Made by a program: the position numbers and the translations under genes
Source: a virus
DNA length: 64,000 nucleotides
Reading direction: 5' to 3' (one strand)
Virus record (IMG/VR): IMGVR_UViG_3300032893_000026
Notes under the pieces: model-generated
What the model was told of the DNA's origin: nothing
The model's database searches: none
The model's input: the letters and a program-made list of their open reading frames with translations, nothing else
Shown: positions 1,799 to 21,422 of the stretch, one piece after another
How the letters are laid out: every line of letters starts with the position of its first letter
Position numbering within the stretch: the first letter of the stretch is position 1

Positions 1799-1840
1799 TT
1801 TTGTATCTCCTTCAGTGCCCGGGATCCAATAACCCCAGGC

Positions 1841-1857
1841 GATTTAGACTCTAAATC
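1841..1857. promoter_or_regulatory. 17-bp palindromic operator-like site GATTTAGACTCTAAATC
   Basis: Perfect odd-length palindrome 43 bp upstream of the 1798 start; one of 15 copies in the genome. Confidence 0.8.
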
Positions 1858-2670: not shown

Positions 2671-2814
2671 TAATTTTTCCTCTGCTGAAGCTGGTTGACC
2701 TACGTTGAATTCGAGGGGCCCGGATCACTTACCCGGGCCCCAGGTCCTAGCAAGGTGTCCAGCACCGGCATCGAGTCCCGGGTCATCCCCGGAACCCCGC
2801 TAAGACGCCGGGCG

Positions 2815-3696: not shown

Positions 3697-3729
3697 CGTG
3701 ACTCCTTTGACTCAGGCCTCCTTAGGCCA

Positions 3730-4068
3730 CTAGGCCGCCAGGGAACAGGGCCGTTGCAGGACCACGATATAAGTCCCGGCGGAACCGGCCACGTTGCCTT
3801 TGCTGAAAGTGACGATATTGGAGTTCGTCAGTACAGCCGCGATGGTGCATACGGCTGTTCCCACCACGTTGGGGGTGATCGTGACGAGCGGGAAGTTGAA
3901 GGCCAACTGCGCCGTCGAGAGCCCCCAGTTGTGGGTCATCACAAAGCTGGTGTCGGTGTCCGCTCCGATTGCCACAGTAGCCGTGATGGTATTGCACTTC
4001 TTTGCCTGTGCGGCAGTGGGAGGCGTAACACCGGCCACCGGGTAAGCGTAAGTGACTGTGACTGCCAT
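3730..4068 (-). CDS. Small beta-rich virion protein (112 aa), possible capsid decoration
   Basis: T/V/A-rich beta pattern with THNWG motif; RBS AAGGAG; lies in the capsid operon. Confidence 0.45.
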   Translation of the reverse strand: MAVTVTYAYPVAGVTPPTAAQAKKCNTITATVAIGADTDTSFVMTHNWGLSTAQLAFNFPLVTITPNVVGTAVCTIAAVLTNSNIVTFSKGNVAGSAGTYIVVLQRPCSLAA

Positions 4069-4097
4069 TTCTTTCTCCTTTCCTTAGCCCTGTGGGG

Positions 4098-4853
4098 CTA
4101 CTGTCTTGCTTCGACTACATCCGTTGCATTCTGGTCCTCCTCCCCCTTGCAAGGGAGGTGGGCCACGGATCTCATGCCGGGCGCGACGGCCCGGACCTTA
4201 AGGTGCACGATCTCCAACCGGGGATCGACCTTGATTACCGCGCCCCCGTCCTTGGCGCGGTAACAGAAACTGATGTCCTCTCCCAAGAAGCCCATCTCTG
4301 TCCTCCCGTCCACAATCGGGCGGAAGGGCCTGTCGCCAGCCATGCGTCCGATCCGGCTGCGCATGAGCACGGCGGGGAACCCGGTCCAGTCCACGGAGAT
4401 CGGGATCTGTCCCAGGAGAGCCGTCACCCGGATCGGCTTGCACCGGATGCCGTCTTCGGAGGAGCGGTATCCACAACTGGGAACGGCGTGGATATCGTAG
4501 CCATCCGGCTGGCAATAGCACCATGCCGACACCATGTCGAGCATGGGATCGTCGAACATGTCGTTGAGCAGGATCTTGAACTGGTCGAAGGTGAGCAGGT
4601 TGTCATCGTCCATCCACAGGATGTAGTCCGCAACGACTCCGCCTTGCCCCTTCATGACCCCGTTCCAGATCGTGGACCTCGTCGCGTACACGTTGGACGA
4701 GTACCCGAGATAGAACTGCACGTTATAGGCGTAATCCGGGTCCATGATCAGTTGGGCCAGGAAAGTTGTCCAGTTACTCACCCACACATTCGGGAATTGC
4801 TCTCCCGGGATGCAGATGGCGAGATTCAATGGCTTCCGCTCGTTCTCACTCAT
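4098..4853 (-). CDS. GT-A (family 2-like) glycosyltransferase
   Basis: Likely start MSENERKP; LAICIPG N-terminal strand, WMDDD DxD motif, TGFPAVL and GEDISFC motifs. Confidence 0.8.
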   Translation of the reverse strand: MSENERKPLNLAICIPGEQFPNVWVSNWTTFLAQLIMDPDYAYNVQFYLGYSSNVYATRSTIWNGVMKGQGGVVADYILWMDDDNLLTFDQFKILLNDMFDDPMLDMVSAWCYCQPDGYDIHAVPSCGYRSSEDGIRCKPIRVTALLGQIPISVDWTGFPAVLMRSRIGRMAGDRPFRPIVDGRTEMGFLGEDISFCYRAKDGGAVIKVDPRLEIVHLKVRAVAPGMRSVAHLPCKGEEDQNATDVVEARQ

Positions 4854-5143
4854 ACGTCTTCCGCTCCTTCGCTTTGACTTGCTCCGCTCGTTCCGCTCGA
4901 TCTCCCCTTGCCGTAGTACTTCCGGTAGAGCCACCACCCCGCCCCCACGGCAAGCAGGAGGAGGATGACGGATTGCGACTGCGATTGCGATTGCGACTGG
5001 TTGGACTGGATCGGGATGCAGTCCCAGAACCCCGTGCTGGCGTCGAGCACCGCGTAGTAGCCCGCGCCGCACCCCGGGTCGACACCGATGCTCTCGGCGG
5101 TGACGCCACCGGCAGGCTGAGATACCAAGTCAGAGAGGTCCAT
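4850..5143 (-). CDS. Small single-pass membrane virion protein
   Basis: Cys pair, QSQSQS linker, hydrophobic VILLLLAVGAGWWLY segment followed by RKYYGKGR. Confidence 0.6.
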   Translation of the reverse strand: MDLSDLVSQPAGGVTAESIGVDPGCGAGYYAVLDASTGFWDCIPIQSNQSQSQSQSQSVILLLLAVGAGWWLYRKYYGKGRSSGTSGASQSEGAEDV

Positions 5144-5145
5144 AT

Positions 5146-6390
5146 CTAGTTCTCGATCCCCGGACTCACGCCGACGAGCGGCTGCTTGATGAAGTACTGC
5201 CCGCCCGTGATGTAGAGCTTCTGGTTCTGCGGCTCGTATTCGAGGTAAGGCCTCTCGCCCGTGTCCTCGCCCAAGTCGTGCTGATAGATGATCTCCTCGA
5301 AGTCATCGAACTTCTTCTTCGTCTTGTAAGCCAGATTCCAGTACCGCTTGTTGTTGGTGGGCTTCGCGCCGGGCTCCGGCTCACTGAATACGCCGAGCAC
5401 CATTCGGTCCTTCAGCCATTTCTTCTCGTCCATCTTGAGCGTCGCCAGATCCACCGACTGGTCGCCGCCCTCGATGTACAGTTGCCTGCCGTCCTCGCTC
5501 GAAGCCAGGAACGGAGGGTTCTTCTCGAAGTCGATTCGGACGCGGATCCTGGTTGGGGTGTCGACGTAGATCTCCGTCAGGGTGCCGAGAGCGGCCAGAT
5601 GCTCATGCTCGTGGTACTCCTCCTCGATCACCACCTCTTCCGTCGACGGAGCGCCGTGGAAGGACTCGTACAGATCGGCGGCGGCACCGGCAGGATTACG
5701 TTTGGCTCTGGGCTTGTAGTCCGAATAGAGGATGTAGTTCTGGCGCCCGGCCCGGTCTTCCTTGTATACACAGGTGGCCGCGTACCCCTTGGCCCGAATG
5801 CTTTGGACAAGCTGGTCCGCATACTGATCGTCTTCCGGGGTAACAGCAGGGAGCTTGAGACTGTATCTGTAACTCCTCCCCCTGAAGGAGAAGGATTTGG
5901 GATTCTTCTTCCAGTCCCACTTACTCCGCTTGTGGCCCCTGGCATACTTCTTTTCCATGGTGGCGCACACCGCTCCCGGATCATATTCCTTCCCTACTCC
6001 CGCCTCGCACCGCTCAAACCACCCTGGCCCCGACCCTGGCCGCGCACCCGAATGGTGCCCCGGATTTGCTTCCCCAAACATGCCCTGATACGGATTGCCC
6101 TTCGACTTACCGAATCCGTGGAGCTTGGCCCTGGCCGCCGCGTAGGCCTCCTCGCGCGTCTTGCCCCCCACTCCCATGGGCTCCCCGGTCTTGTTGAACC
6201 ACTCCCACCTGCCGTCCGACTGGGTGAGCCGGATCTCTTCCGTGCTTCCGTCATCCGTGGTATAGGTGGCCTTGTCCGGGTCCTGCTCGTCTGGAGTCGG
6301 GCCATCCGGGTTAGGCCTTCGTCCCCCGTGTCTCTCCAGCACGTCGAAGTAGGAGGTATCGTGCTGGCCCATCTCAAGGCTCGATGCCAT
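5146..6390 (-). CDS. NP-motif modular virion/core protein (414 aa)
   Basis: Five NP motifs, mostly in a basic context, separate distinct segments; a globular-looking C-terminal domain of about 185 aa starts at KRNPAGAAADLYESFHG. Confidence 0.55.
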   Translation of the reverse strand: MASSLEMGQHDTSYFDVLERHGGRRPNPDGPTPDEQDPDKATYTTDDGSTEEIRLTQSDGRWEWFNKTGEPMGVGGKTREEAYAAARAKLHGFGKSKGNPYQGMFGEANPGHHSGARPGSGPGWFERCEAGVGKEYDPGAVCATMEKKYARGHKRSKWDWKKNPKSFSFRGRSYRYSLKLPAVTPEDDQYADQLVQSIRAKGYAATCVYKEDRAGRQNYILYSDYKPRAKRNPAGAAADLYESFHGAPSTEEVVIEEEYHEHEHLAALGTLTEIYVDTPTRIRVRIDFEKNPPFLASSEDGRQLYIEGGDQSVDLATLKMDEKKWLKDRMVLGVFSEPEPGAKPTNNKRYWNLAYKTKKKFDDFEEIIYQHDLGEDTGERPYLEYEPQNQKLYITGGQYFIKQPLVGVSPGIEN

Positions 6391-7963: not shown

Positions 7964-8001
7964 TGTTACTTACCTGTTACTTACCTGTTACTTACGTTAC
8001 C
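7964..8001. repeat. 11-bp tandem repeat (TGTTACTTACC) x3 plus partial
   Basis: Read directly; AT-rich, in the intergenic gap upstream of 6392-7948. Confidence 0.9.
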
Positions 8002-8561
8002 TATGAGCCGTACTGGCCGACATACGATGCCGCCCGTTTGTATCCCCTGTATTGGGAGCGCAGGGCCGCGCGTTTCTGGCGGTACTCCGATCCGGACGGC
8101 TCAAAGATGAACCAGAGCACGAGCCCTCCCGCGATCCATCCCCATAACGGGATCTGGAAGCTACCGATCCCGTAGTCGGTGGTGAGGGTGTTCTCGATGG
8201 ACGTGAGCGTCGAGGAGAAGTCTCCCAGCCCCTTCAGCCCTCCCGCACACCCGCACCCGGCGAGGCCAGCGCACCCGCACCCCAGGCCGCTAAGGCCCTG
8301 CCCGGATCCGGCCACCGGGGATATGACGGAGGTGGAGGCGAGAGCGTCGCGGATCGGGTTCTGCGGCACGGCGAACGCGGCGGGGAGCAGTTCCCCGATG
8401 TGGGGCACGTAGGCCGCGTGGCCGCGCATCAGTCCCTGGACGGAGGGCACAAGCGCCGTGCCCGGGTCGTTGGCGTCCGCAATGGGGTTCTGCGGCACAA
8501 CGAAGTTTCCCGGCAACAGGTCGCCGAATCCGGGGGCCGGGTGGAAGTTGAGATGAGGCAT
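8001..8561 (-). CDS. Membrane virion protein with two VPQNPI repeats and GLSGLG motifs
   Basis: GDLLPGNFVVPQNPI and GELLPAAFAVPQNPI; GLSGLGCGCAGLAGCG; TM LWGWIAGGLVLWFIF; basic tail. Confidence 0.65.
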   Translation of the reverse strand: MPHLNFHPAPGFGDLLPGNFVVPQNPIADANDPGTALVPSVQGLMRGHAAYVPHIGELLPAAFAVPQNPIRDALASTSVISPVAGSGQGLSGLGCGCAGLAGCGCAGGLKGLGDFSSTLTSIENTLTTDYGIGSFQIPLWGWIAGGLVLWFIFEPSGSEYRQKRAALRSQYRGYKRAASYVGQYGS

Positions 8562-8574
8562 CGTCTGATATCTC

Positions 8575-8865
8575 CTATTTCGCAACCATGACTACCGCGA
8601 CAATCCCGATAGCCAGGACTGCCAGAAAGATCGGGCCGTTATAGTCGCCCATGACCAGACTGCATGTGGCCGAGGGGCCGAGCACGGAAGAGAGCGTGGG
8701 ATAGTTGGTCGAGGCATAATCCGCGCACTGGGCCTTGTTGATGGCCGCCGTGGCCGAGTCCGCTTCCGACACCGGAGCGCAGGCCGTAATCAGGGATCCG
8801 GAGGCGGGGATCAGGGAACACCACCAGGGGACCGAGGCAGTGCCCGAAGCCGATACGTTCGCCAC
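8575..8865 (-). CDS. Small Cys-containing single-pass membrane protein
   Basis: Four Cys, C-terminal hydrophobic helix ending in K; tightly coupled in the operon. Confidence 0.6.
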   Translation of the reverse strand: MANVSASGTASVPWWCSLIPASGSLITACAPVSEADSATAAINKAQCADYASTNYPTLSSVLGPSATCSLVMGDYNGPIFLAVLAIGIVAVVMVAK

Positions 8866-8868
8866 CGG

Positions 8869-9408
8869 TTACCTCCTCCCCTTCGAGGCGCTCACGCTCG
8901 TGAGCAGGACGAAGAACGCGCCGAATCCCAGAAGCCACCACACCACGGTCGAGGACGTGGGGGTCTGGTTGCCGCCCGTGCCGGATCCCGTGCCTGCCCC
9001 CACGCCCGAGCCGGAGCCCTTGGTGCCGATCCCGGTGCCCTGCGTGGTGGAGCCCCCGGTTGGGAGGCCGGTGCCGCCCGGCGTACCGGTGACTTGGCCG
9101 CCTCCGCCGGTAGAGCCGGTAGAGCCGGTAGAGCCGGTAGCGCCGCCCGTCGAGGGAGTGGTGGAAGTGGTGGTGCAATGGCCTGCCGAGTCGCAGGTGA
9201 TGTCGGGGCCGCACGCGCCGCCCGCACAGATCGTTCCGGCTTGCCCGGACTGGATGCCGGGGTCGACCGAGTTATCGACCGTCGCGATGTAAGTGCAATC
9301 GCCTCCCTGCCCGTCCGTGGCCGGGTCGATGGTGGTGAAGGAATTGCCGTTCACCGTGCAGGAGTAGACATCCACGGTATTGCCGAGTCCACCTAAGTGG
9401 ATCATCAT
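8869..9408 (-). CDS. Cys-rich single-pass membrane protein with G/S/T linker
   Basis: HLGGLG near the N-terminus, six Cys, (GST)n linker, TM VVWWLLGFGAFFVLL, KGRR tail. Confidence 0.65.
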   Translation of the reverse strand: MMIHLGGLGNTVDVYSCTVNGNSFTTIDPATDGQGGDCTYIATVDNSVDPGIQSGQAGTICAGGACGPDITCDSAGHCTTTSTTPSTGGATGSTGSTGSTGGGGQVTGTPGGTGLPTGGSTTQGTGIGTKGSGSGVGAGTGSGTGGNQTPTSSTVVWWLLGFGAFFVLLTSVSASKGRR

Positions 9409-9680
9409 ACGGTCTTCCTCCTCTCCCTATCTCCCACTCTCCGCACGCCTATCTTCGGAGGCCTGGGCCCGGCGCTTTGCCGGATCATGTTGCGGAGCTT
9501 CCGCATGGGCTCGTTGTGCGGGCCCAGGTTGGCCCTGCACACCAGTTCCAGTTCCGGCCTCAACTCGTGATAGATGTCCTTCGCGAGAGGGCTGGCCTTC
9601 ATCTCGACGATACGGTCCAGGACCTTCATCGCCAGGATGTCCAGGCGGCCAGTCGGATCGGTGCTGGTGCGTTTCGCCAT
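9405..9680 (-). CDS. Small basic hypothetical protein
   Basis: Start MAKRTS just after the stop of the 55-aa ORF; stop overlaps the next start. Confidence 0.45.
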   Translation of the reverse strand: MAKRTSTDPTGRLDILAMKVLDRIVEMKASPLAKDIYHELRPELELVCRANLGPHNEPMRKLRNMIRQSAGPRPPKIGVRRVGDRERRKTV

Positions 9681-9682
9681 GC

Positions 9683-9850
9683 CTACTTCTTCTTGGGCCT
9701 GCTGAACAGCACGGCAAGCCCCGCCCCCACCCAGAACCACCACGGCGTCTTGGCGCACTCGGACAATTGATCCGAGGTGGAGCCGGTCTGTCCCTGCGTC
9801 TCAGAGAGGTAACAGCTTTCCAGGGGCCGCCATCCTAACATCTGTGCCAT
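9683..9850 (-). CDS. 55-aa membrane protein missed by the ORF track
   Basis: Translated by hand: AGGAGG RBS, MAQMLGWRPLESCYLSETQGQTGSTSDQLSECAKTPWWFWVGAGLAVLFSRPKKK*. Confidence 0.7.
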   Translation of the reverse strand: MAQMLGWRPLESCYLSETQGQTGSTSDQLSECAKTPWWFWVGAGLAVLFSRPKKK

Positions 9851-9871
9851 CGCATCTCCTCCTTAGGTCAC

Positions 9872-10216
9872 TCACTCATTTACTGTCAGAGGCGGCACGG
9901 CACTGGACCAGGGCGGCACTGGCCCAAGCACCGGCACGCTGTAAGTCGAGATAGACGGAACCAACACGCCAGCCGGTCCCTGCACCGCTCCACCCTGCAC
10001 CGCCACGGGGATCACCGACGCGGCCACGGTGGGCGAGGTCACGGTGGGCTGCACCGTCCCTCCCACCACGCTACCGGCGGGGGCCACCTGGGCCGTGGGA
10101 GAAGTGGCCGTGGCATTGGGACTGGAGCTTGTGGCAGTCGTGGCGGTGCTCGACGATTTCTGGTTGTACAGGTAGTAGAGGAGCGCCGCTCCCCCGAGAA
10201 TCCATGCCCAGTTCAC
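9872..10216 (-). CDS. N-terminally anchored S/T/P/V-rich membrane protein
   Basis: WAWILGGAALLYYLY TM followed by low-complexity sequence; RBS present. Confidence 0.55.
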   Translation of the reverse strand: MNWAWILGGAALLYYLYNQKSSSTATTATSSSPNATATSPTAQVAPAGSVVGGTVQPTVTSPTVAASVIPVAVQGGAVQGPAGVLVPSISTYSVPVLGPVPPWSSAVPPLTVNE

Positions 10217-10240
10217 CGTTATTCTCCTTTCGCGTGGGCG

Positions 10241-10960
10241 CTAGGTGGCCCACCCTCCGTACACTCCGACCGGCCTGCGCCTGCGCCACCCGAGCCCGGC
10301 AAGCCCGCTCGATTGCAGGAACGGGAGCACGGCGGCCCACCAAGTCTGGAAAGTCACGGGCGCGTGGGCATCGCTGGCGTTGGGGAACATGGACTCCGGC
10401 GCGGGCGCGGTGTAGCCAGGGGTCACCTGCATCAGGAAGTAGTTCCAGGTGTCCGGAGACTGGGAGCCGGAGATGTAAGTGGAACTGACTCCCGAGGAGT
10501 TGATGAAGGCCACCACCTTCGCCTGCAACTGATCGGCCTTCGACTGCACGGCAATGGTGGTGGTGCTGGTGCCCTGCGCCGGGGTGGTGGTGGCGCCGGT
10601 TGTGCCGGTGGCGACGGTGGTGCCGGTGGAGGAGGCGAGGGGCTGCATCAAAGTGGGGTACTTGACCAGAGCGGCGTATATGCACGCGGCGGTAGTGGGG
10701 TCGATGTTACCGGACGCCTGGGAGACGAGGCTCTGGTATAGCTGCATGCCCGTCATTCCCTTGTCCGCCGCCGAGGTGTTGTAGGCCGCCGCGACGGTTT
10801 TCAGGTCCGCATCCGATGCCCCGCAGGTGGCAGTGCCCCCCGTGGTGCCCGTGCCGGTGCCGGTGCCGGTGCTGGTGGTGGAAGTCCCGAGCAGTCCCGT
10901 CTGTTTCATCAGAAAGTACGCGGCCACCCCGAGAATGAGGACTAACACTCCGTTCTTCAC
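10241..10960 (-). CDS. Membrane virion protein (N-terminal TM, T/G linkers, GLAGLG near the C-terminus)
   Basis: GTG start overlaps the upstream TGA; VLVLILGVAAYFLM TM; GLAGLG followed by WRRRRP. Confidence 0.6.
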   Translation of the reverse strand: MKNGVLVLILGVAAYFLMKQTGLLGTSTTSTGTGTGTGTTGGTATCGASDADLKTVAAAYNTSAADKGMTGMQLYQSLVSQASGNIDPTTAACIYAALVKYPTLMQPLASSTGTTVATGTTGATTTPAQGTSTTTIAVQSKADQLQAKVVAFINSSGVSSTYISGSQSPDTWNYFLMQVTPGYTAPAPESMFPNASDAHAPVTFQTWWAAVLPFLQSSGLAGLGWRRRRPVGVYGGWAT

Positions 10961-11259
10961 TTTCTCGCTCCTTTCTTGGGCTTGAGCAGGAGATACAGAC
11001 CCACCAGCCCGGCGGCGGCCATCAATGCATGGTTCTGCACCCAGAGATTGAAGTCGCAGAGCCACCCGGTAGCCGTATCAGCCACGGTGCCGGTCTTCGG
11101 CGGGGTGATACTCGGATAGACGGCAGTCAGTGTAATAGGGCCCATATCAGTGCCCGTAGCCGCCGCTTCGGACGGCGAGGAAGCCGGTGCCGAGTTATCA
11201 CCCGCGCCGAGGTATTGCGCGGCCAGCACGCTCTGCACATTCGGATCGGATACAGCCAT
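10957..11259 (-). CDS. Single-pass membrane protein
   Basis: C-terminal TM ALMAAAGLVGLYLLL followed by KPKKGARK. Confidence 0.6.
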   Translation of the reverse strand: MAVSDPNVQSVLAAQYLGAGDNSAPASSPSEAAATGTDMGPITLTAVYPSITPPKTGTVADTATGWLCDFNLWVQNHALMAAAGLVGLYLLLKPKKGARK

Positions 11260-11262
11260 AAC

Positions 11263-11667
11263 TCATCTCCTCTTATTCGCGACTAAGACGGCCACGATTC
11301 CAGCCGCCAGCAATAACGAGCCCCATCCCAACCCGCTCATCCCCGATCCGGACCCCGGGCTTGCGGCCTGGGATTGAGACTGGGACTGCGCCTGGGCTTG
11401 AGAGGACAAGGTCTGCGCCGTGCTCGACACGCCCGACCCCATGGGGACTGATCCCGGCTGATCGGACTGATCGGACTGATCGGACTGATCATATTGGTCG
11501 ACGAGCCCGGCGATGGTCACCGGCTTGGGGTGGTTGTGGAAATACCACGGCCCCCTGCCCTCCACCATGGTGGTGGGGTTCGATCCAAGCCTGTTCAGCA
11601 TCCGGCTGATCTCCATGTCCCACGTCGTGGAGTGCAGTTTGAAGGGAGAGATAGCTACCTGTGGCAT
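11263..11667 (-). CDS. Single-pass membrane protein with GMSGLG before the TM
   Basis: Likely start MPQVAISP; (DQS)n and QSQ linkers; TM; NKRR tail. Confidence 0.6.
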   Translation of the reverse strand: MPQVAISPFKLHSTTWDMEISRMLNRLGSNPTTMVEGRGPWYFHNHPKPVTIAGLVDQYDQSDQSDQSDQPGSVPMGSGVSSTAQTLSSQAQAQSQSQSQAASPGSGSGMSGLGWGSLLLAAGIVAVLVANKRR

Positions 11668-12581
11668 TACTTCTTTCCTCCCATGACCAGGAACAGGCCT
11701 ACCGCCGCCGCGCCGATGACTAACAGGCTGGTGGTCTGGCTCATGCCGAACAGGCTGAATCCCGCGCCGGATCCTGTTCCACTGGTGGAGCCGGTGCCGG
11801 AGGTCTGCTGGGTGGCCGTCTGCACAATCCCCCCGCCGTTGGACGTCGAGGTCCCTCCGCCCGTGCTGGTAGTAACAGGTATGCCAGTGCCCGTGCCCGC
11901 GCCTGCACCCGTGCCTGTGCCTGTGCTGGCGCCTGCGCCGGTCACAACCGTCCCCGTGGATGAGGGGAGGGTCTGCTGCGCCTGCTCCTGCGCCACCTGC
12001 TGCGCCGCCGCTTGGCTCTCGGCCACGTCTGCCTGCCAGTTGGCATCGAGTTGCGCGTTGAAACTCGTGTACCCCAATGCCTCGATCTTCGCCGCCCAGA
12101 CATCCGCCGGAGGCGCTACGAAGTGATGCACGGCGCGGGTCGCATCGCGGGCCACGAGATCTTGCAGGTAGGGGCTCCAGGACCGTTCCAGCGTGCCGTC
12201 CGGATTCACTATCATCAACGTTCCGGAACTCTCCACCGTGTAGGGCATCGAGTAACTCGGGTTGTACACGGCGTTGATCATCTGTGTGTACATGCCGGAA
12301 TAGTCGGGCGCGTAAACTGTCTGTCCACCCGCCGTCTGCCATTCCTGCCCGATGCTGCCGTAGAAGGCCGCGATGTTGGCGGCCAACGAGCCCTGGTCTT
12401 GTGGGACGAAGTTTCCCGCCCCGGCCACCACCCCCATCCCTCCGAATCCGTTGAGCCCCATTCCCGACATTCCCGAACCGGGGACGTTGATCTGTTTCAT
12501 CCCGAGCCGGGAGAACGGACTCCTGTCCATGCTATGTGGGTGCACTTGAAACTGGAACGGCCTTACCCGGATGTTAGCCAT
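11667..12581 (-). CDS. Membrane virion protein (304 aa) with GMSGMG leader motif
   Basis: Basic leader, GMSGMGLNGFGGMG, globular segment, T/G linker, C-terminal TM ending GGKK. Confidence 0.65.
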   Translation of the reverse strand: MANIRVRPFQFQVHPHSMDRSPFSRLGMKQINVPGSGMSGMGLNGFGGMGVVAGAGNFVPQDQGSLAANIAAFYGSIGQEWQTAGGQTVYAPDYSGMYTQMINAVYNPSYSMPYTVESSGTLMIVNPDGTLERSWSPYLQDLVARDATRAVHHFVAPPADVWAAKIEALGYTSFNAQLDANWQADVAESQAAAQQVAQEQAQQTLPSSTGTVVTGAGASTGTGTGAGAGTGTGIPVTTSTGGGTSTSNGGGIVQTATQQTSGTGSTSGTGSGAGFSLFGMSQTTSLLVIGAAAVGLFLVMGGKK

Positions 12582-12582
12582 G

Positions 12583-13434
12583 TTAGTTGTCCCCCATAAC
12601 CAGGACCAGGGCGATGGCCCCGAGTCCCAGGTAGGCCAGAGATTTAGAGTCTAAAGAAGTAGTGCCGCCGCTGGAGGCCGAGGTGGAAGTGGAGGTAGAG
12701 GCCGAAGTGGAGGTCGAGGTCCCGGAGTCGAGGGAGATATCGGCGGCCACCGTCTGGTCGTTGGCTACGATGTCGCGGTAGCCGTTGAACCAGTTCCAGC
12801 ACTGCCCGGGCTGAGGCTCACCGGGATAGGAGAGCAGGGGGGAGGTGGTGGTCTGAAGCCACTTGCAGGCCCCGGCCTGACGGTCCGCGATGCAGTTCTG
12901 TCCCGCCGTGCCGAGCCCCGCCTGACTGCACCTCTGCACCAGCCCCTGCCATGCCGCGTCGATGACTCCGAGCACGGCATTCTGCGCCGCCTGGGTGCGG
13001 GGAGCGGGGAGTGCGAAGTAGGCCTGGACGGCCTGCTTGATCGTGTCCTCGGCTTGGTTGGCCCATTCGGAAGTGACCACGCAAGTCTCGCCGCATCCCC
13101 TGCCGAGCAGGACGGTGATGGCAAGCATGGCCCCCGCGATGATGGGGCCGATGAAGGGCACGATGCCGGAGGCCGCGATGGCCGCGCCAAGTCCCGTGGT
13201 GGCTCCGGCGGCGGTGGCGGAGGCGGCCAGGGCACCGGCCACGGCGCCTGCGGAAGAGAGGGTAGCGCCCGCGATGGCGGAGGCCTGCTTCTCGGCGGGG
13301 CTCATATCACCCAATCCGGCAAGCCCGAGCCCGAGGCAAGGAAGACAACCCACCCCACTGCCGGTGCGGTAGCGCACGGGGCTACGCATGACTGCATATC
13401 CGTGGGCCGCGCGGTATGGGGTGAGTTGGCGCAT
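12583..13434 (-). CDS. Membrane virion protein (283 aa) with GLAGLG leader motif and Cys-rich domain
   Basis: Basic leader ending GLAGLG-D, Ala/Gly-rich hydrophobic hairpin, six further Cys, S/T linker, C-terminal TM. Confidence 0.65.
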   Translation of the reverse strand: MRQLTPYRAAHGYAVMRSPVRYRTGSGVGCLPCLGLGLAGLGDMSPAEKQASAIAGATLSSAGAVAGALAASATAAGATTGLGAAIAASGIVPFIGPIIAGAMLAITVLLGRGCGETCVVTSEWANQAEDTIKQAVQAYFALPAPRTQAAQNAVLGVIDAAWQGLVQRCSQAGLGTAGQNCIADRQAGACKWLQTTTSPLLSYPGEPQPGQCWNWFNGYRDIVANDQTVAADISLDSGTSTSTSASTSTSTSASSGGTTSLDSKSLAYLGLGAIALVLVMGDN

Positions 13435-13437
13435 GAG

Positions 13438-13740
13438 TTAGGAGATCTCCGTGGGCTTGGTGGCCGAGGCCGGAGCCGGAGCCGGAGCCGCAGAGCCGTA
13501 GCCGTGAGACTCCATCCAGGCCTCGATCAACTGGTCCGTCTCCTCGGCGGATTGGACCGCACCGTCCTGGATGGTCTGGATCTGGACGGTGATGTCGGAG
13601 GAGGAGGACTCGAAGAGAGCCTTGATCTTGAGCGCCGCCTCGATGCCGGTGGGGACGAGGGTGGCGAGGAGCGAGACACCCTGGAACACGAGAGCGATGA
13701 CGTTGGCCGCCGTACCGGTCGGAACAATCGGAGTCGCCAT
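13438..13740 (-). CDS. Small membrane-associated protein
   Basis: Hydrophobic N-terminal helix; directly coupled to 13741-14250. Confidence 0.5.
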   Translation of the reverse strand: MATPIVPTGTAANVIALVFQGVSLLATLVPTGIEAALKIKALFESSSSDITVQIQTIQDGAVQSAEETDQLIEAWMESHGYGSAAPAPAPASATKPTEIS

Positions 13741-14250
13741 TTACTTTGCTCCCTGGGCAGTGGTTACCGCCACGGTGATGGACTGCACGATGGTCTGGAT
13801 CGAGCGCACCAGCGAGATCACGAGCGGAGGAGTGGCCGTGGTCTGCGCGAGGTAGGGCTTGACCGAGTCGGGCAGGCTCATGCGGTTGAGGTCTGCCTGG
13901 ATCTGGATGACGAAGGTGGGCCAGTCGATGGACTTCGCGGTCACGGCTTTGAGCGTGATCTCGGACGCCTCGACGGCCAGGGCCACGTTGCGGCTCCAGT
14001 CGAGGATCGCCTTGGCCTCCGCCTGGGAGATGAGATTGGCGGCCTGCACAGAGATGACACCCTGCGCCACGGCTTCGTTTCCCGTGCTGATCGCAGCCAC
14101 GGTCTGGTTGATGGTGAGGAGCGCCTTGGTCTGCGCGTCCGTCGAGTTGATGGTGGCCGAATGCATACAGCTAATGGATGTGAGTACGCCCGCCAGGAGC
14201 AGGACCACTGCCGCGCGGGCGAGTTTCGCTTGTGTGGTCATAGAAGTCAT
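13741..14250 (-). CDS. Signal-peptide or lipoprotein-like helical protein
   Basis: KLARAAVVLLLAGVLTSISC, a weak lipobox-like Cys; amphipathic helical body. Confidence 0.5.
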   Translation of the reverse strand: MTSMTTQAKLARAAVVLLLAGVLTSISCMHSATINSTDAQTKALLTINQTVAAISTGNEAVAQGVISVQAANLISQAEAKAILDWSRNVALAVEASEITLKAVTAKSIDWPTFVIQIQADLNRMSLPDSVKPYLAQTTATPPLVISLVRSIQTIVQSITVAVTTAQGAK

Positions 14251-15026
14251 ACTCGTTGGTACTGGAACCTCTCCTCCTGGGTCATGCCCGGCTCCCCGGC
14301 TGCTTTGAGCAACTTGTTGGTGAGCGGAGGGAGGAAGTGGGAGATGATGGCAGTCCGCAGGGAGCCGTGCTTGGCCTCTGAATCGACCTGATGTAACGCG
14401 CCCATGTAGTGGCCGAGGGCATAGTGGTTGTAGTAGGGCTTGGCCGATTGCTTGCGGTCATACTCCGTCAACACATGAAGCAGTTTGGCGTGCGTGCGCT
14501 CATCGATTGGATTGGAGCGCACCCACTTCTGCAAAGCCCGCGCGATGCGCTTCGTCTTCGACGGGTTTTGTCTTCGCGCCCTCCGCTTCGAGGAGGACTT
14601 GGACTTGGTGCGCCGCTTGGTGGCCGAGCGCCTGCCGCGTGCCGTCTTGCGTCTGGTTTTGGCTTTGGGCTTGGTCCCGGCGTATACGACACGCTTGCCG
14701 CCCGGCCCCTTGCGCGTCAGGTAGCGCGGGCCCATCTGATCGGTGCGGGCGCCGTACTCGTCGCCTGCCCGCTCCTCGTCGTAGTCTGCGCTCCGGCGCA
14801 GGGGGTGGAACTTTCCACCGGCCCAGAACCCGGCCTGCACGTTCCGGCGCACCGGATTGTGCTTACTGCGGTTGGCCTTGATCTCCACCCGCATGTGCAG
14901 CTTGTTGGCGAGTTTCTGCGCGTAGGTGCGGGCCGCCGAGTCCGACTTGAGATAACGTCCGTCCGTGGCGTGGGGACTGCCGCCCGCGACTCCCACCGGG
15001 TATGCGTTGAATGTGTACCAGCCCAT
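14247..15026 (-). CDS. Basic NP-motif core protein (259 aa)
   Basis: KHNP, RRQNP and RSNP separate segments; central K/R-rich tract. Confidence 0.6.
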   Translation of the reverse strand: MGWYTFNAYPVGVAGGSPHATDGRYLKSDSAARTYAQKLANKLHMRVEIKANRSKHNPVRRNVQAGFWAGGKFHPLRRSADYDEERAGDEYGARTDQMGPRYLTRKGPGGKRVVYAGTKPKAKTRRKTARGRRSATKRRTKSKSSSKRRARRQNPSKTKRIARALQKWVRSNPIDERTHAKLLHVLTEYDRKQSAKPYYNHYALGHYMGALHQVDSEAKHGSLRTAIISHFLPPLTNKLLKAAGEPGMTQEERFQYQRV

Positions 15027-15036
15027 GACGCTCTCC

Positions 15037-15705
15037 TTACTTCTTGCTCATCATGAAAATGAATAACAGCAGCCCGCCGCCGATCAACAGGACGGTGGTT
15101 CCACTGAGCACGGTGGATCCGATCTTGACCGTCCCCGTCTGGGAGGTGATCGGGTAGCCTGTGGTCTGCCGCGAGGTAGCTCCCGTGGACGTCTGCACCG
15201 TGCCGGGCTGGATGGCCTCCAGCTTGGCGACATCGAGGATGCCCTGCGTGGCGGCGGTGATGACGGGGGTCCAGTTGGTGGAAGTCGTACCGGAAGGAGT
15301 GGAGGCCGGAGTGCCGGTGCTCGATCCGCCCCCGGTATAAGTCACCGTGCCGGTTGGCATGCCGGGATAGTTGAGGACGGTAGTCGAGGTTCCGCCGCCC
15401 GATCCTGTCGATCCGCTGCCGGAGCAGGGGTCCGGGTCCATGCATGCGCCGCTCTCGTCCACCATCGAGCAATCGCATCCCAGTCCCGAGATTCCGAGAC
15501 GGGACTTGATTCTCTGGATCGCGGCGCGGCGGCGGGCCAGCACCTGCGGGCGCACCACGCGCCTGACGGGCGCTGCACGCACTCCCAGGCCTCCCAGGCC
15601 TCCCAAGTCTCCGAGCCCGGCCATGGACTTCGACGCGAACAGATCCTGGACCTGGGAAGGCGAGAGCATCGAGTCCGGGACCACGGTATAGGACGGAAGC
15701 ATCAT
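15037..15705 (-). CDS. Membrane virion protein with repeated GLG motifs and a Cys-rich mini-domain
   Basis: ATGA overlap with the upstream stop; MAGLGDLGGLGGLG and ISGLG-CDC; G/S/T linker; TM; MSKK tail. Confidence 0.65.
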   Translation of the reverse strand: MMLPSYTVVPDSMLSPSQVQDLFASKSMAGLGDLGGLGGLGVRAAPVRRVVRPQVLARRRAAIQRIKSRLGISGLGCDCSMVDESGACMDPDPCSGSGSTGSGGGTSTTVLNYPGMPTGTVTYTGGGSSTGTPASTPSGTTSTNWTPVITAATQGILDVAKLEAIQPGTVQTSTGATSRQTTGYPITSQTGTVKIGSTVLSGTTVLLIGGGLLLFIFMMSKK

Positions 15706-16391
15706 ACGGGCAATCCTTTCGCTAACAGGTATGCCGCGCCCCCCACTGCCGCAACCAGGGCCAGCACGTTGATTGAAGACTCCGTGGACACGGGGACATC
15801 CACGGACCATTCCCTGCGCCGGTAGACTCCCTCCGTCACCTCCCACCCGACGTAGGGCCCATGCGAGAAGTCGACGGGCGTGCGCTGGCCGCCGGGATAG
15901 GCGACGCAGTAAACGTGGGACCAGTTGCGGGGAAGCTGGGGATCGGCGGCCACGGTGCAGAAGTTGATCTTGATGCCCGAAGCACGGAGGAGCGCCGCGC
16001 CGTACATCACGTAGTCATCGCAGTCTCCCTGGGCCCGCGAGGCCACGCTCATGTCGCGCGGGCGGATCAGCACCTCCGCCACGTCCTCGTTGCTGCCAAC
16101 CAGGGAGGCGACCGGCCTGCCGGTGTCCTCGTCGCGTACGAAGTGCATCCGGCTGCGCACCCAGTTGAACACTCCGGCGACGGGATCCGCGCCCATGTTC
16201 GCGTCGCGGAGGAAGGCCGCGTCCATCCGTATCTCCGGGCTTGCCGTATCGGTGCGGACGTAGGAGGCCATCAACGCGAGGACCTGGGCGCACTGCGTGT
16301 CGGGATCGTCGCTCACCACGTCGATGCGGTAATGCAGTTGTTGCCCGAAGCCGGGATGGTAGAGAGTGCCGGTGAGGCCGCTCAATTCCAT
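15702..16391 (-). CDS. Transglutaminase-like cysteine protease with C-terminal membrane anchor
   Basis: GDCDD (Cys), SHVY (His), PVD (Asp) triad pattern; upstream FNWVR..F..D; C-terminal TM; first gene of the virion operon. Confidence 0.8.
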   Translation of the reverse strand: MELSGLTGTLYHPGFGQQLHYRIDVVSDDPDTQCAQVLALMASYVRTDTASPEIRMDAAFLRDANMGADPVAGVFNWVRSRMHFVRDEDTGRPVASLVGSNEDVAEVLIRPRDMSVASRAQGDCDDYVMYGAALLRASGIKINFCTVAADPQLPRNWSHVYCVAYPGGQRTPVDFSHGPYVGWEVTEGVYRRREWSVDVPVSTESSINVLALVAAVGGAAYLLAKGLPV

Positions 16392-16724
16392 CCGGCGCAC
16401 CTCATATAAGGAAGGCCGGGACGGGGATCGGCGGGACCGGCGGGGAGGATCTCCACCGGGCAACAACGAGGACTAGCGAGGCCACTGGTTGGCAATCCGG
16501 CTTGCCCCGGCCCGGCCCCCAGGTGACTCGCCCGAGCACCTGGAGCTTGGGATCTCAGCACGGGCCCCACCATAACGCCATGCCGTTTGCCGCGCCATAC
16601 ACGGTGTTGTGGAAGCCCATTAAGTATTACCGGCGGAGCGCATCGATCCCCGGGCAGGAGGCCGAGTGCGGGTACAATCGCCATATCAGGACACATTCCA
16701 AACGTGGAACAGGAGGCAATTATC

Positions 16725-19247
16725 GTGGCAAGCAACAGATACAACAGGCCCACCAAACTACCAAAATCGACCACTCACGAGATGCTGGACCTCAACCAGT
16801 CGGTCTATCCCGAGGATTCGCCCGCTTCGCCCTCTCCTCCCGTGGCCGTGGCCGATCCCACGCCGTCCAATGCCGGGATCCAGGGAGTGGAGGCGGCGGC
16901 CCCCATGCCTGAGCCGGGCGGTGATCCGGAAGGTGAGCCGGAACAGGACCCGGAGGATCCAGTAAGGCCTATACGGGCCCCAGATCCAGGCCCCGGACCT
17001 CACCCGGACAAAGACAGGGAGCCAGGACCGGCTACAGGCCCGATCCCTGTGGCGCAGAGCCCGGCCAGAGCCTCCCAGGCCAGGGGGGAGGTGGTATCAG
17101 ACCCCCCGGCGCCCCGAGAGCCTGTAGGGCCAGCCACGGGGCCTGCTGCAGGGCCTGCTACAGGGCTTGATACGAGGCCGGGAGCGGGGTACTCCAAGCC
17201 CCGTCCCGGGGCAGGCCTGGACACCCCTACAGTCAGGGCGGAGGCCCGCCATAGGGGCGAGGTGACCGGGCCTGGGGCCAGGGAGCGCAGGCAGGAGCCA
17301 AAACAGAGCCCGAGGACGGAAACGCCTCAGCCGGGCATGACCGACATCGGCTCTCCCTTCCCCACGCCGAAGCAGTTTGACCTCTCGCCCGAAGACTTCT
17401 TCACGTACTGGAGAGATCTCCGTCCGAGCGACCAGGACCGGGTGATGGTGTACGCCTACCGGTTGTGGCCGGTGTGCGACGTGTTGCAAAATCTCCCGCC
17501 GGAGGAGATCGAGGCCATCGCGCGGAAGGAGAAGCCCAAGCCCCCGGTCAACATCGCCAAGTTCGTCTCGCCGTGGGGCACCGCCCAAACCTACCGGCAG
17601 GACATCCTGCACCGCTTCGGGAGCGGGGATTACAATTTCAGGCTGAACGACACCTCCGCGCCCCTGCCGAGCGGCAAGCGGGGGAGCCGCACCGTCTGCA
17701 TGACCACGGTGAGCGGGCTGCGCGACTTCGATCATTACCCTCCCGTACTGGACGTGAGCGAACTGGTGGTGGCAGACCCCGCCAACCAGAGTTACGTGCG
17801 GTGGAGGCAACTCAAGGGTCTTAAGACGCCCGGCGCGGAGAGTGACCGGATGGAAGGAGATGACGAAATGGCGGGAGCCGAGGCAGTCAAAGCACTCACG
17901 GGCACCGTGGCATCGCTCACGGAGAAGCTCACCAACCAGAAGATGGATCCCAACATGGCCGCGACGGGCCGCGCGGCGGAGGTGGTGGCCGATGCCGCCA
18001 AGCAAGGACAGCAGATTATTGCGGAGGCAATGCGGGTGGCGCGGGAGACTGCCGCCGCCAGCCAGAACCCCCACGCCTATCACGAGGACATCATGAACGC
18101 AGCCAAAACTCTCACCCCGCCTCCTCCGCCGCCCGGATCCTCCATCGGGGTCGCCGAGATCCTGGGCATCTTCCAGACCTTCATCGCGTCGCAACAGACC
18201 CAGTTCTCCTCGATGCTCTCGCTCGTTCAGGAGAACGCACGCACACAAATGGAGGAGATGCGGACGCGTCTCAAAATCACCGAAGAGCGGCTCACTGCGG
18301 CCCTCACTCCCAAAACTGAATCCAACTCCGGCAACTCCGGATCCTCCACCAGCAACCCGAAGCCGAAGGGATTGCTGGAACAGTTGAAGGAGATGAAAGA
18401 GGTGGTGGACATGTTTGGGGGCCTGAACGAGGCCTCCGAGAAATCCGGCATGCCGGGGTGGGTGCCGATTGCGGCCCAGGCGGCCCAGGGAGTCCTGGGC
18501 AACTTGGCTACGCTCGTCTACAACATGAAGCTCCAACCGGGCCAAGCGCCCATGGCTCCCATGCCTCCTGCCCAGGTGGGCGAGACGGAGGAGTTGGAAC
18601 CCGAGCCGGGGCAGGAAGAGGAGACGGAAATGGGAATGGTACTGAATCTGGTGAAACAGCTAGAAGCCCCCCTGTTGAACGCCTTGCAGCAGGGCAAGAC
18701 GGGCTATCAATTCGGCGCGGAGTTCCTGTTGCAGCAGGGAGACATGGCGTACTCATGGATGTGCGAACAGGGATCCGACAAACTGCTTACCTACCTGCAA
18801 CTGCACCCGCCGCTCTGGGCTCAGTTGATCCGCATCCCGGACCGCTTCGCGCAGTTCCTCAACCAGTTCCTGGAGAGGGACAAGGTGCTCTCCCTGGCGC
18901 AGAGGATGCGCATGGCGGCCTCCGGTGTCCGCGTCCCCCAGCCCATTCACCAATCCGCCCAGGCTCCCCCACCTCCGGCCAGACCCATGACCCAGGCTCA
19001 CCCGGCTTACCCGCCCCCGCCTCAAGCCCCATCCCCGGCTCCAGCCCCCACCCCAGCCCCCACTCCAGCCCCCACTCCCGTCTCCGGCTCCAACACCACC
19101 GTCATCCGCCCCGAGGTGCAGACCGTGATCATGGACCCGGCGCAACGGATGGGCCCGGGCCGGGGGGTGTCCAGACCGAAGGTTGTGACGGTGGAGGGTG
19201 TGGAGAGCACGGAGGGAACGGCTCAAGGAGGAGAGCCCGCCAAATAA
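16725..19247 (+). CDS. Large Pro-rich/helical protein of unknown function (about 840 aa)
   Basis: GTG start with AGGAGG RBS; P-rich termini, central HRFGSGDYNFRL domain, long predicted helices; own terminator. Confidence 0.7.
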   Translation: MASNRYNRPTKLPKSTTHEMLDLNQSVYPEDSPASPSPPVAVADPTPSNAGIQGVEAAAPMPEPGGDPEGEPEQDPEDPVRPIRAPDPGPGPHPDKDREPGPATGPIPVAQSPARASQARGEVVSDPPAPREPVGPATGPAAGPATGLDTRPGAGYSKPRPGAGLDTPTVRAEARHRGEVTGPGARERRQEPKQSPRTETPQPGMTDIGSPFPTPKQFDLSPEDFFTYWRDLRPSDQDRVMVYAYRLWPVCDVLQNLPPEEIEAIARKEKPKPPVNIAKFVSPWGTAQTYRQDILHRFGSGDYNFRLNDTSAPLPSGKRGSRTVCMTTVSGLRDFDHYPPVLDVSELVVADPANQSYVRWRQLKGLKTPGAESDRMEGDDEMAGAEAVKALTGTVASLTEKLTNQKMDPNMAATGRAAEVVADAAKQGQQIIAEAMRVARETAAASQNPHAYHEDIMNAAKTLTPPPPPPGSSIGVAEILGIFQTFIASQQTQFSSMLSLVQENARTQMEEMRTRLKITEERLTAALTPKTESNSGNSGSSTSNPKPKGLLEQLKEMKEVVDMFGGLNEASEKSGMPGWVPIAAQAAQGVLGNLATLVYNMKLQPGQAPMAPMPPAQVGETEELEPEPGQEEETEMGMVLNLVKQLEAPLLNALQQGKTGYQFGAEFLLQQGDMAYSWMCEQGSDKLLTYLQLHPPLWAQLIRIPDRFAQFLNQFLERDKVLSLAQRMRMAASGVRVPQPIHQSAQAPPPPARPMTQAHPAYPPPPQAPSPAPAPTPAPTPAPTPVSGSNTTVIRPEVQTVIMDPAQRMGPGRGVSRPKVVTVEGVESTEGTAQGGEPAK

Positions 19248-21315: not shown

Positions 21316-21362
21316 TTTGCTAGTCCTCGTTCTTCAAAAGTTTTTTCTGCATCGTGCCACAA

Positions 21363-21407
21363 TACGGGCGCGTACAGGGACTACAAAATTCCTGTCCCGC
21401 GCCCGTA
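21363..21407. promoter_or_regulatory. Intergenic hairpin upstream of parB
   Basis: TACGGGCGCG...CGCGCCCGTA outer stem with an ACAGG/CCTGT inner stem. Confidence 0.55.
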
Positions 21408-21422
21408 CTGCAACGGCTGTAA

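Follow-up and report, generated by a model that had tools for sequence, protein, structure and literature searches.

A tail-anchored enzyme with a predicted transglutaminase fold opens an 8.4-kb module of 14 small, mostly single-pass membrane proteins on the minus strand (8001-16391), and a short glycine-leucine-glycine motif, [LMI]xG[LM]G, is enriched and conserved in the proteins that follow it. The window, which is the whole 64,000-nt stretch of DNA that was analysed, is one 57,841-bp unit, wrapped, and its source is an uncultured virus of soil Acidobacteriota. The initial annotation had paired the enzyme with the motif, and this observation is confirmed for the window; the description of an enzyme-led membrane-protein module with a conserved motif is very probably correct. 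The motif may be a cutting or a sorting signal for particle building. The proposed mechanism as a whole, in which the motif is a signal and a LapG-like enzyme trims the membrane proteins of the particle, is tentative and is given a probability of roughly one in three. No paper describing the pairing of the enzyme and the Gly-Leu-Gly motif was found in the literature.

The virus is probably tailless and membrane-containing. No terminase, portal, or HK97 capsid protein was recognised in its genome, and the candidate major capsid protein is modelled by AF2 as two beta-sandwich, jelly-roll domains (pLDDT 93.0), an arrangement that the model would share with the two jelly rolls of the adenovirus hexon. 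The top Foldseek matches of this protein are the double jelly-roll capsid proteins of an iridovirus, PBCV-1, PRD1, and STIV, with E values of 2e-5 to 1e-3 and TM scores of only 0.16-0.28, and residues 147-293, which make up one domain only, gave VIA Z scores of 6-8 against viral jelly rolls. The enzyme gene diverges from a large gene, and in all related loci where this region is visible a large gene (349-807 aa) has the equivalent place and orientation and therefore marks the start of the module. The features are collected in Table 1.

Table 1. Positions of the enzyme, the module genes, and the motif sites in the window, with the SSIP-1 homologue given in the numbering of its own record.
Feature	Coordinates	Strand	Remarks
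Enzyme (P0001), 229 aa	15702..16391	-	Tail-anchored, transglutaminase-fold Cys-His-Asp enzyme; heads the module
Asp123-Cys124-Asp125 codons	16017..16025	-	Around the catalytic Cys
His159 codon	15915-15917	-	
Asp174 codon	15870-15872	-	
Tail-anchored protein (P0241), 222 aa	15037..15705	-	Next after enzyme; four motif sites
P0241 motif sites	15610-15624, 15592-15606, 15583-15597, 15478-15492	-	MAGLG, LGGLG twice, ISGLG
Basic protein, 259 aa	14247-15026	-	No strict motif
Other module genes	13741-14250, 13438-13740, 10957-11259, 9872-10216, 9405-9758, 8575-8865	-	No strict motif
Membrane protein, 283 aa	12583..13434	-	Conserved Cys-rich domain; LAGLG (13309-13323) closes the leader
Tail-anchored protein, 304 aa	11667..12581	-	MSGMG (12456-12470), then immediately LNGFG and FGGMG
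Tail-anchored protein, 134 aa	11263..11667	-	MSGLG (11326-11340) abuts the C-terminal transmembrane helix, then KRR tail
Protein with N-terminal hydrophobic segment, 239 aa	10241..10960	-	GTG start; LAGLG (10289-10303)
Tail-anchored Cys-rich protein, 179 aa	8869..9408	-	LGGLG, residues 5-9 (9382-9396)
Membrane protein (P0121), 186 aa	8001..8561	-	LSGLG (8280-8294), LKGLG (8223-8237), also LAGCG
Lysozyme-like protein, 221 aa	51832..52497	-	Outside module; LGGLG, residues 17-21 (52435-52449)
Large divergent gene, 886 aa	16587..19247	+	Position and orientation conserved
Candidate major capsid protein, 293 aa	429..1310	-	Context only; models as two jelly-roll domains
SSIP-1 gp34 (Salisaeta icosahedral phage 1, JN880423)	21296-22210		Annotated 'structural protein'; record without function

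The enzyme starts at Met26 of the longest open reading frame and features the motifs GDCDD, SHVY, and DxSHG. It has no signal peptide and is instead anchored by a C-terminal transmembrane helix (approximately residues 204-224) that adjoins the catalytic domain without a linker. Cys124, His159, and Asp174 are invariant and occur in this order in an alignment of 58 homologues (A1), as is the stretch D123-C124-D125, and more than 227 homologues were found. Some of the homologues carry a precomputed PF01841 match; the enzyme itself lies below the threshold of the Pfam PF01841 Transglut_core profile (17.1 bits vs a cut-off of 23, E 0.0067). The AF2 model (pLDDT 93.5) aligns over 135-160 residues with structures of the transglutaminase superfamily at VIA Z scores of 10-12.8, which include 12.8 for 3kd4, 10-11 for PNGase, TG2, TG3, and FXIII, and 10.3 for 3isr, and Foldseek also assigned the transglutaminase-core fold with a probability of 1.0. 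The model and the alignment together indicate that the enzyme is a real transglutaminase fold with an invariant catalytic triad, and they bear out the initial reading of a membrane-anchored, transglutaminase-like Cys-His-Asp enzyme at the head of the operon. No other protease-like family was found among the approximately 60 proteins that were scanned. The N-terminus of the enzyme forms a hairpin, L-S-G-x...H-P-x-[LF]-G, that is related to the motif and packs onto its own domain.

Cross-linking enzymes, amidases, and cell-wall isopeptidases share the modelled fold as well, and the structure searches showed no preference for LapG over them; the PF06035 (BTLCP/LapG) profile gave no match to the enzyme at an E value of 0.01 or better. 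It is improbable that the enzyme is carried on the particle as a cell-wall peptidase for entry or exit, comparable to the pseudomurein endoisopeptidases PeiW and PeiP, and is unrelated to the motif. These proteins from methanogen viruses (MEROPS C71) are virus-encoded transglutaminase-fold Cys-His-Asp hydrolases that match the model with Z scores of 8.8 (PeiW) and 9.1 (PeiP), the homologue in the phage SSIP-1 carries a structural-protein annotation, and the genome also encodes a membrane-anchored lysozyme-like enzyme. Glycosidase and peptidase pairs are common in phages. The Z scores to PeiW and PeiP are, however, below those to other superfamily members, and PeiW and PeiP are soluble lysins with N-terminal wall-binding repeats, whereas the Pfam search revealed no wall-binding domain or repeat in the enzyme and no sequence match to these proteins. 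Additionally, the catalytic domain sits directly on its anchor, so that its reach to the wall would be limited, and a wall peptidase leaves the motif unexplained.

The enzyme and the motif-bearing proteins have a common tail-anchored layout. In the protein encoded next to the enzyme, a Cys-rich region and then an S/T/G stalk come after the motif sites, and the C-terminus consists of a transmembrane helix with a KK tail. Both motif positions are preserved in the orthologues from five related loci (L001, L002, L005, L006, and L009), and the 27 N-terminal residues that precede the first site are conserved in this family as well. In the family of the 283-aa protein, the length of the leader before the motif varies greatly between orthologues, which retain G[LM]GD or ELGD immediately ahead of the conserved region. 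In the 239-aa protein, LAGLG lies 15 residues from the C-terminus, ahead of a basic tail; no match was found for an orthologue, and other module proteins of related loci, which may not be its orthologues, share this layout. P0121 features two copies of a module of approximately 20 residues, GLGD...VPQNP, a GLGC/GC-rich centre, a transmembrane helix, and a basic tail. Its 111 homologues conserve two Cys residues and both G[LM]G sites, which are retained in at least approximately 90% of them, together with the VPQNP modules, whose cores vary little or not at all. The module genes without the strict motif encode mostly small proteins with a single hydrophobic helix, and they belong to no Pfam or PHROG family, showing weak sub-threshold Pfam matches only. 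The lysozyme-like protein encoded outside the module shares the layout of the motif-bearing module proteins: the motif comes first, then the enzyme domain, and an S/T/G/D stalk leads to the transmembrane helix at the C-terminus. Its PHROG matches are the lytic domains of tape-measure proteins and endolysins.

All motif instances listed in the initial annotation were found in the genes named, including LGGLG in the lysozyme-like protein. That the motif ends an N-terminal leader holds for five of eight proteins; in the 134-aa and 239-aa proteins it lies near the C-terminus and in P0121 it is internal. The leaders had also been described as basic, which not all of them are. The pattern [LMI]xG[LM]G is present as proposed, but it extends at both ends to the full consensus (G/S)-[LMI]-x-G-[LM]-G-(D/E/Q/C). 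The codons differ between the sites and the motif is therefore a peptide feature and not a DNA repeat.

The motif occurs 11 times in 7 of the 14 proteins downstream of the enzyme, where 0.51 and 0.50 sites were expected from within-protein shuffles, which ignore local composition, of this curated set, and the maximum among 3000 shuffles was four. Seven related loci contain 28 sites downstream of the enzyme vs 3.2 expected, with a slight excess upstream (5 vs 1.6). The 37 IMG/VR loci, among them distant ones in which the enzyme is only 28-35% identical, contain 65 sites vs 12.1 expected downstream of the enzyme and 7 vs 5.8 upstream. Approximately half of the sites lie within the first 50-60 residues, and the motif is associated with C-terminal membrane anchors (29/41 vs 37/125, Fisher p 6e-6; in a second count 36/59 vs 92/286, p 5e-5). 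It is quite unlikely that the motif reflects the structure (a turn) or the composition of glycine-rich linkers with no shared recognition, or that it is cut by a host protease and not by the viral enzyme. Several sites do sit in Gly-rich runs, whose local composition the shuffles do not preserve. However, [LMI]xG[AVST]G, taken as a control, shows no enrichment (0 sites vs 1.6 expected) and G[AV]G only a weak one (9 vs 6.1), the residues that flank the motif are also biased, with G/S before it and D/E/Q/C after it, its position is retained in orthologues at 30-50% identity, and the upstream genes show little or no excess. The motif is non-random, family-wide, and module-specific.

Cleavage of the motif by the enzyme, in the manner of adenovirus, is plausible by analogy. 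The motif peptide would be a common recognition signal on proteins of the particle membrane, and the enzyme would be a site-specific, LapG-like cysteine protease, perhaps calcium-dependent, on the same face of the membrane. During assembly or maturation it would cut at the motif sites, trimming short leaders from N-termini, basic tails from C-termini, and also some internal linkers, as a functional counterpart of T4 gp21 or adenain with a different fold. The motif has a hydrophobic residue two positions ahead of a small one, which fits the specificity of papain-type enzymes and counts for cleavage. Single proteins carry up to five sites and would yield very small pieces if all were cut, which counts against it, as does the module of approximately 20 residues that the motif heads in part of the proteins, which is more suggestive of a docking peptide than of a protease site.

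The motif could instead be an uncut sorting or docking tag, possible but on balance doubtful, that binds a common partner (the capsid base, a scaffold, or an organiser of membrane patches) and brings the tail-anchored proteins into the particle membrane, with the enzyme serving a separate purpose. The module GLGD-x-L-P-G-x-F-V-V-P-Q-N-P, which has an invariant or nearly invariant core, is headed by the motif in several proteins and is used again at the C-terminus of a protamine-like protein (2815-3696), and the repeats within single proteins suit multivalent binding. The link with membrane anchors, the conserved residues ahead of the first site in P0241, and the motif-related hairpin of the enzyme also favour a tag. 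The long module is, however, absent from most sites, and the variable leader of the 283-aa family is typical of leaders that are removed. To our knowledge, a short motif common to many particle proteins is a cleavage site in T4, phiKZ, adenovirus, ASFV, and poxvirus, which argues against a tag. The co-occurrence check that the initial annotation proposed was run, and every sufficiently complete relative has both the enzyme and the motif; as the two belong to the core of the entire clade, the result is uninformative and cannot discriminate between the readings.

The VPQNP modules also bear on cross-linking. A true transglutaminase could cross-link particle proteins and stabilise the contact of shell and membrane, for example through the near-invariant Gln of these modules, although this is very unlikely. 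The model has Z scores of approximately 10.5 to TG2, TG3, and factor XIII, the Gln is found in 109/111 and 102/111 homologues, and many basic, Lys-rich partners are encoded nearby. The sequence Q-x-P presumably resembles the glutamine-donor preference of TG2. VPQNP is, however, limited to two or three protein families, while G[LM]G is widespread and holds neither Gln nor Lys, and Glu replaces the second Gln in six homologues. Other bacterial transglutaminase-like proteins that have been studied are mostly hydrolases. LapG and DvhG are hydrolases too (PMC13090378).

The proposed trimming of particle proteins by the enzyme can be compared with several known systems. The profile built from the 58 enzyme homologues matches gp34 of SSIP-1, a cultured membrane-containing tailless phage, with an hmmsearch E value of 3.3e-15 (48 bits), a homology at the profile level, while BLAST showed no similarity. 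Like the enzyme, gp34 has the C-D...H...D order and a C-terminal transmembrane helix, and its gene lies close to the start of a late module that encodes many tail-anchored proteins; gp34 differs by approximately 90 extra residues between the domain and the anchor. Several of these SSIP-1 proteins have G[LM]G close to the N-terminus, but they do not keep the motif's hydrophobic position. The SSIP-1 proteins taken as motif-bearing are gp37, gp53, ORF36, and ORF52. Within the first 45 residues, G[LM]G occurs in four late proteins vs 0.87 expected, and 21 of 2000 shuffles gave a count as high or higher. The SSIP-1 study reportedly characterised the phage and its structural proteins.

LapG and DvhG, which are bacterial transglutaminase-like cysteine proteases, share the predicted fold (Z 9.5 and 8.8) and the Cys-His-Asp triad. 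DvhG is a proven protease of this fold in which the acidic flanks of the catalytic Cys, D316-C317-E318, form a calcium site needed for activity (PMC13090378), and the invariant D-C-D of the enzyme may be its equivalent. On substrates held at the membrane, both proteases cleave close to the N-terminus at [T/A/P]AAG, a short motif of small residues (PMC13090378). LapG is, however, a soluble protein of the periplasm under the control of LapD and c-di-GMP, whereas the enzyme is viral, tail-anchored, and paired with a different motif, and the Pfam scans revealed no LapD-like gene. Adenain (MEROPS C5) cuts at (M/I/L)XGX-G and (M/I/L)XGG-X. The proteins described here match and are enriched in this pattern, which is a likeness of pattern and not of cleavage, and the initial annotation was right to treat it as an analogy: adenain has a clan CE fold with the order His, Glu/Asp, Cys, whereas the enzyme has a transglutaminase core in which Cys precedes His and Asp. 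In adenovirus, several particle proteins carry a site near their ends and the enzyme is packaged, and packaging of the enzyme would be alike here. The T4 prohead protease gp21 offers a candidate parallel in that many T4 particle proteins carry short terminal signals, the capsid-targeting leaders of internal proteins, which direct them to the capsid and are cut off at L/I-x-E. T4, a tailed phage, uses a serine protease and soluble core substrates, whereas the substrates here would be membrane proteins.

The motif [LMI]xG[LM]G is concentrated in 14 mostly small membrane-protein genes (the module), which lie downstream of the gene for a tail-anchored transglutaminase-fold enzyme. Every instance of the motif listed in the initial annotation is found in the sequence, and the module is enriched in the motif: seven of the 14 curated module proteins hold 11 sites, against 0.51 and 0.50 expected from shuffles, none of 3000 of which gave more than 4 sites. 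Look-alike control patterns show no enrichment, and the rest of the genome outside the module has 5 sites against 1.4 expected. The codons differ between the sites, so the signal resides in the peptide and a DNA-level repeat is ruled out. A lipoprotein or Sec signal peptide was rejected because a hydrophobic core is absent ahead of the motif, a sortase, exosortase or rhombosortase C-terminal sorting signal because the motif stands directly before the anchor in only one protein, and a glycine zipper within membrane helices because hydrophobic segments contain only 3 of 54 sites. The ten module proteins queried against PHROGs have no family there. One of the 5 sites outside the module is in the lysozyme-like protein, which has the leader-domain-stalk-anchor layout of the motif-bearing module proteins and is probably a particle-borne wall hydrolase held in a membrane.

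The same distribution is seen in related viruses. Downstream of the enzyme, seven related loci feature 28 sites where about 3 are expected, spread over 21 of 84 proteins, and upstream they feature 5 sites against 1.6. A further 37 IMG/VR loci, gathered with the enzyme profile and including enzymes only 28–35% identical, have 65 sites downstream (12.1 expected) and 7 upstream (5.8 expected). The flanks of the motif are biased, with Gly or Ser before it, Ser, Arg or Ala at x, and Asp, Glu, Gln or Cys after it. About half of the sites in the relatives fall within the first 50–60 residues, a smaller set is located 15–35 residues from the C-terminus and is followed by a basic tail, and tail anchors are much commoner in the motif-bearing proteins than in their neighbours (p = 6e-6 and 5e-5). 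Within single families, named here by the start coordinate of the gene, both sites of the 15037 family hold their position in the orthologue alignment, the 8001 family retains its two G[LM]G sites in 100 and 91 of 111 homologues, and in the 12583 family the conserved part is immediately preceded by G[LM]GD or ELGD, with leaders of very different length ahead of it. A short motif near the ends of many otherwise unrelated particle proteins is a signature of maturation cleavage in T4, phiKZ, adenovirus, ASFV and poxviruses. That the motif is instead a passive structural feature, or that a host protease is involved, is unlikely. The C-terminal arrangement of the 10241 protein, a motif followed by a short basic tail, recurs in six related loci (L005, L006, L009, L044, L046 and L052) and resembles adenovirus pVI, where cleavage at a C-terminal site frees the basic cofactor peptide pVIc.

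The enzyme gene lies in an open reading frame at 15702–16466 and most likely starts at Met26 (16391); the resulting protein is identical to a database protein. It has at least 227 homologues, many on contigs of 52–68 kb, and in an alignment of 58 homologues D123, C124, D125, H159, D174, S176, H177, G178 and W183 are invariant and a C-terminal hydrophobic helix is always present. The Pfam transglutaminase-core match is below threshold, a sequence-profile search of solved structures gave nothing significant, and neither an IMG/VR scan with the single protein as query nor a tblastn search of cultured phages gave a match; relatives beyond these searches were reached solely by profiles. The model of the enzyme (pLDDT 93.5) has Z-scores of 10–12.8 against transglutaminase-superfamily structures, including a Parabacteroides putative protease, PNGase, TG2, TG3, factor XIII and 3isr, and scores of 9.5 and 8.8 for LapG, 9.1 for PeiP and 8.8 for PeiW. 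The protein falls outside PF01841 (by profile), PF06035, clan CE and C71, and is placed by its transglutaminase fold, its triad and its homology to gp34 of SSIP-1 (the cultured Salisaeta icosahedral phage 1). The modelled fold and triad are secure; they do not show whether the enzyme is a protease, cross-linker, amidase or wall isopeptidase. A wall-peptidase role is improbable. Additionally, the enzyme homologues P0031, P0033, P0005 and P0007 bear the motif themselves (LQGLG, LHGLG, GGLGS), in an N-terminal extension or at the extreme N-terminus just ahead of the catalytic domain, and the enzyme of the window starts M-E-L-S-G-L-T-G. This N-terminal motif could be a self-processing site.

The initial annotation had looked to the co-occurrence of enzyme and motif across related genomes; the two are found together, but this does not discriminate between the readings. 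Two loci reached through the 8001 protein (L008 and L009) also have the enzyme at the same place (E = 1e-81). Among 14 IMG/VR loci gathered via this protein, the enzyme is on the same contig in 12. The remaining two loci come from fragmentary sequences (68% and 21% complete), so the enzyme could lie beyond their ends; the query gene of the larger fragment is 4.5 kb from the contig end. No case of the motif without the enzyme occurs among these 14 loci, a comparison that has no power. The capsid alignment is too divergent for a contig scan, so relatives were not gathered independently of the enzyme by way of the capsid.

Bases 1–6159 of the window recur identically as bases 57842–64000, which makes the window a single wrapped unit of 57,841 bp from a circular or terminally redundant genome. 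The GC content is about 62%, there are no tRNAs, nearly all genes are on the minus strand, and the early half consists of phage-type replication genes. A scan of about 60 proteins revealed no terminase, portal or HK97 capsid, and a tailed-phage genome was rejected on this ground, though one podophage fibre-like domain is present. The candidate major capsid protein has 308 homologue clusters in metagenomes and, modelled with an alignment, features two beta-sandwich (jelly-roll) domains (pLDDT 93). Foldseek searches of solved and viral structures place double jelly-roll capsids (iridovirus, PBCV-1, PRD1, STIV and a tectivirus) at the top of the lists with low TM-scores, and VIA-align gives Z 6–8 against viral jelly rolls for one domain. 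Based on these results, a tailless jelly-roll virus is likely, not proven. A relative of the whole module (L003; GCA_046331605.1, JAXLQN010000013.1, 13741–34451) lies within a 358-kb contig of a Bryobacteraceae genome bin, where it is probably an integrated copy; this indicates Acidobacteriota as hosts. Two adjoining genes encode fibre parts of tailed-phage type in this genome without tail, portal and terminase genes. In every related locus seen, a large gene (349–807 residues) divergent from the enzyme gene has the place and orientation of the large plus-strand gene of the window.

Features of the window that are discussed in the text
Feature	Coordinates	Strand	Description
Candidate major capsid protein	429-1310	-	293 aa; AF model and fold matches
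Protamine-like protein	2815-3696	-	VPQNP module once, near the C-terminus
8001 protein	8001-8561	-	VPQNP module twice
10241 protein	10241-10960	-	Motif and short basic tail in the last 20 residues
Transglutaminase-fold enzyme	15702-16391	-	229 aa; Cys124, His159, Asp174
Sole large plus-strand gene	16587-19247	+	886 aa; Pro-rich start; no family
Phage 'DNA topoisomerase' family protein	22672-23631	-	phrog_6247, E = 5e-107; Pfam empty
Lysozyme-like protein	51832-52497	-	LGGLG at residues 17-21; acidic S/T/G stalk; C-terminal membrane anchor
Adjoining fibre-type genes	55566-55997; 56021-57310	-	PF23140 domain (fibre I protein gp80, podophage GP4), E = 3.9e-10, beside phrog_2448 member, E = 7e-29
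Split family A polymerase; UDG-exonuclease fusion; DinG-like helicase; ERCC4 nuclease; AAA_24; resolvase; DUF932	early half		
ParB and topoisomerase	early half		

The motif opens a module of about 20 residues, H-P-A-P-G-[LF]-G-D-L-L-P-G-x-F-V-V-P-Q-N-P-I, in the families of the 8001 and 2815 proteins; the core residues of this module are invariant or nearly so in 111 homologues. This VPQNP module may serve for docking or as a Gln donor. Its resemblance to a docking peptide, together with the presence of up to five sites in some proteins, disfavours cleavage and argues for a motif that serves as an uncut docking or sorting tag, a possible but doubtful reading. A docking signal of this kind would act as a transferable label that directs proteins into viral membranes. 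The near-invariant Gln of the module could even be a cross-linking site; that the enzyme acts as a cross-linker is very unlikely. A complex prediction of enzyme residues 1–203 with residues 1–135 of the 8001 protein scored 0.00, with the partner poorly folded, and weighs on neither side.

Cleavage of the motif sites by the enzyme, a candidate function, is given a probability of about 0.35. It fits with the only protease-like enzyme found among about 60 proteins scanned, which shares its membrane layout with the motif-bearing proteins and has its catalytic domain directly on the membrane in the model; the active site of this enzyme also resembles that of LapG-type proteases. In the proposed mechanism, a membrane-anchored transglutaminase-fold protease would cut at G-hydrophobic-x-G-L-G sites to trim a dozen tail-anchored membrane proteins and so mature the particles. 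A role for such trimming throughout a large clade of bacterial viruses that contain a membrane and lack a tail, from 35–68-kb Acidobacteriota soil viruses to the halophilic SSIP-1, is a tentative extension that is on the unlikely side. A cut site would also offer a handle on the sorting of membrane proteins into an internal viral membrane. The words protease, proteolytic, cleaved and processing are all absent from a 2019 review of membrane-containing phages (PMC6356626), and a literature search for the pairing of enzyme and motif found no description.

The nearest relative of the enzyme with any experimental footing is gp34 of SSIP-1, a cultured phage with an internal membrane; gp34 has no assigned function. 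The profile of the 58 enzyme homologues matches gp34 with E = 3.3e-15, a link that BLAST alone misses, and gp34 shares the order of catalytic residues and the C-terminal anchor. Its annotation as a structural protein in the SSIP-1 record is consistent with cleavage. Four late proteins of SSIP-1 feature G[LM]G within the first 45 residues where 0.87 are expected, a weaker version of the motif signal, and the existence of this cultured relative makes either reading directly testable. The nearest working model is LapG/DvhG. DvhG is a proven protease of this fold in which the acidic flanks of D316-C317-E318 make up a calcium site that its activity requires, and both DvhG and LapG cleave a short [T/A/P]AAG motif (PMC13090378). 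The invariant D-C-D of the enzyme looks, in sequence, like the D-C-E of DvhG. Adenain and T4 gp21 offer no more than analogies. To our knowledge, maturation proteases of jelly-roll viruses are otherwise known only from eukaryotic lineages; if the cleavage reading is true, the enzyme would be the first maturation protease known among prokaryotic jelly-roll viruses, and adenovirus-style processing at glycine sites would have a separate origin in bacterial viruses, with a different enzyme fold.
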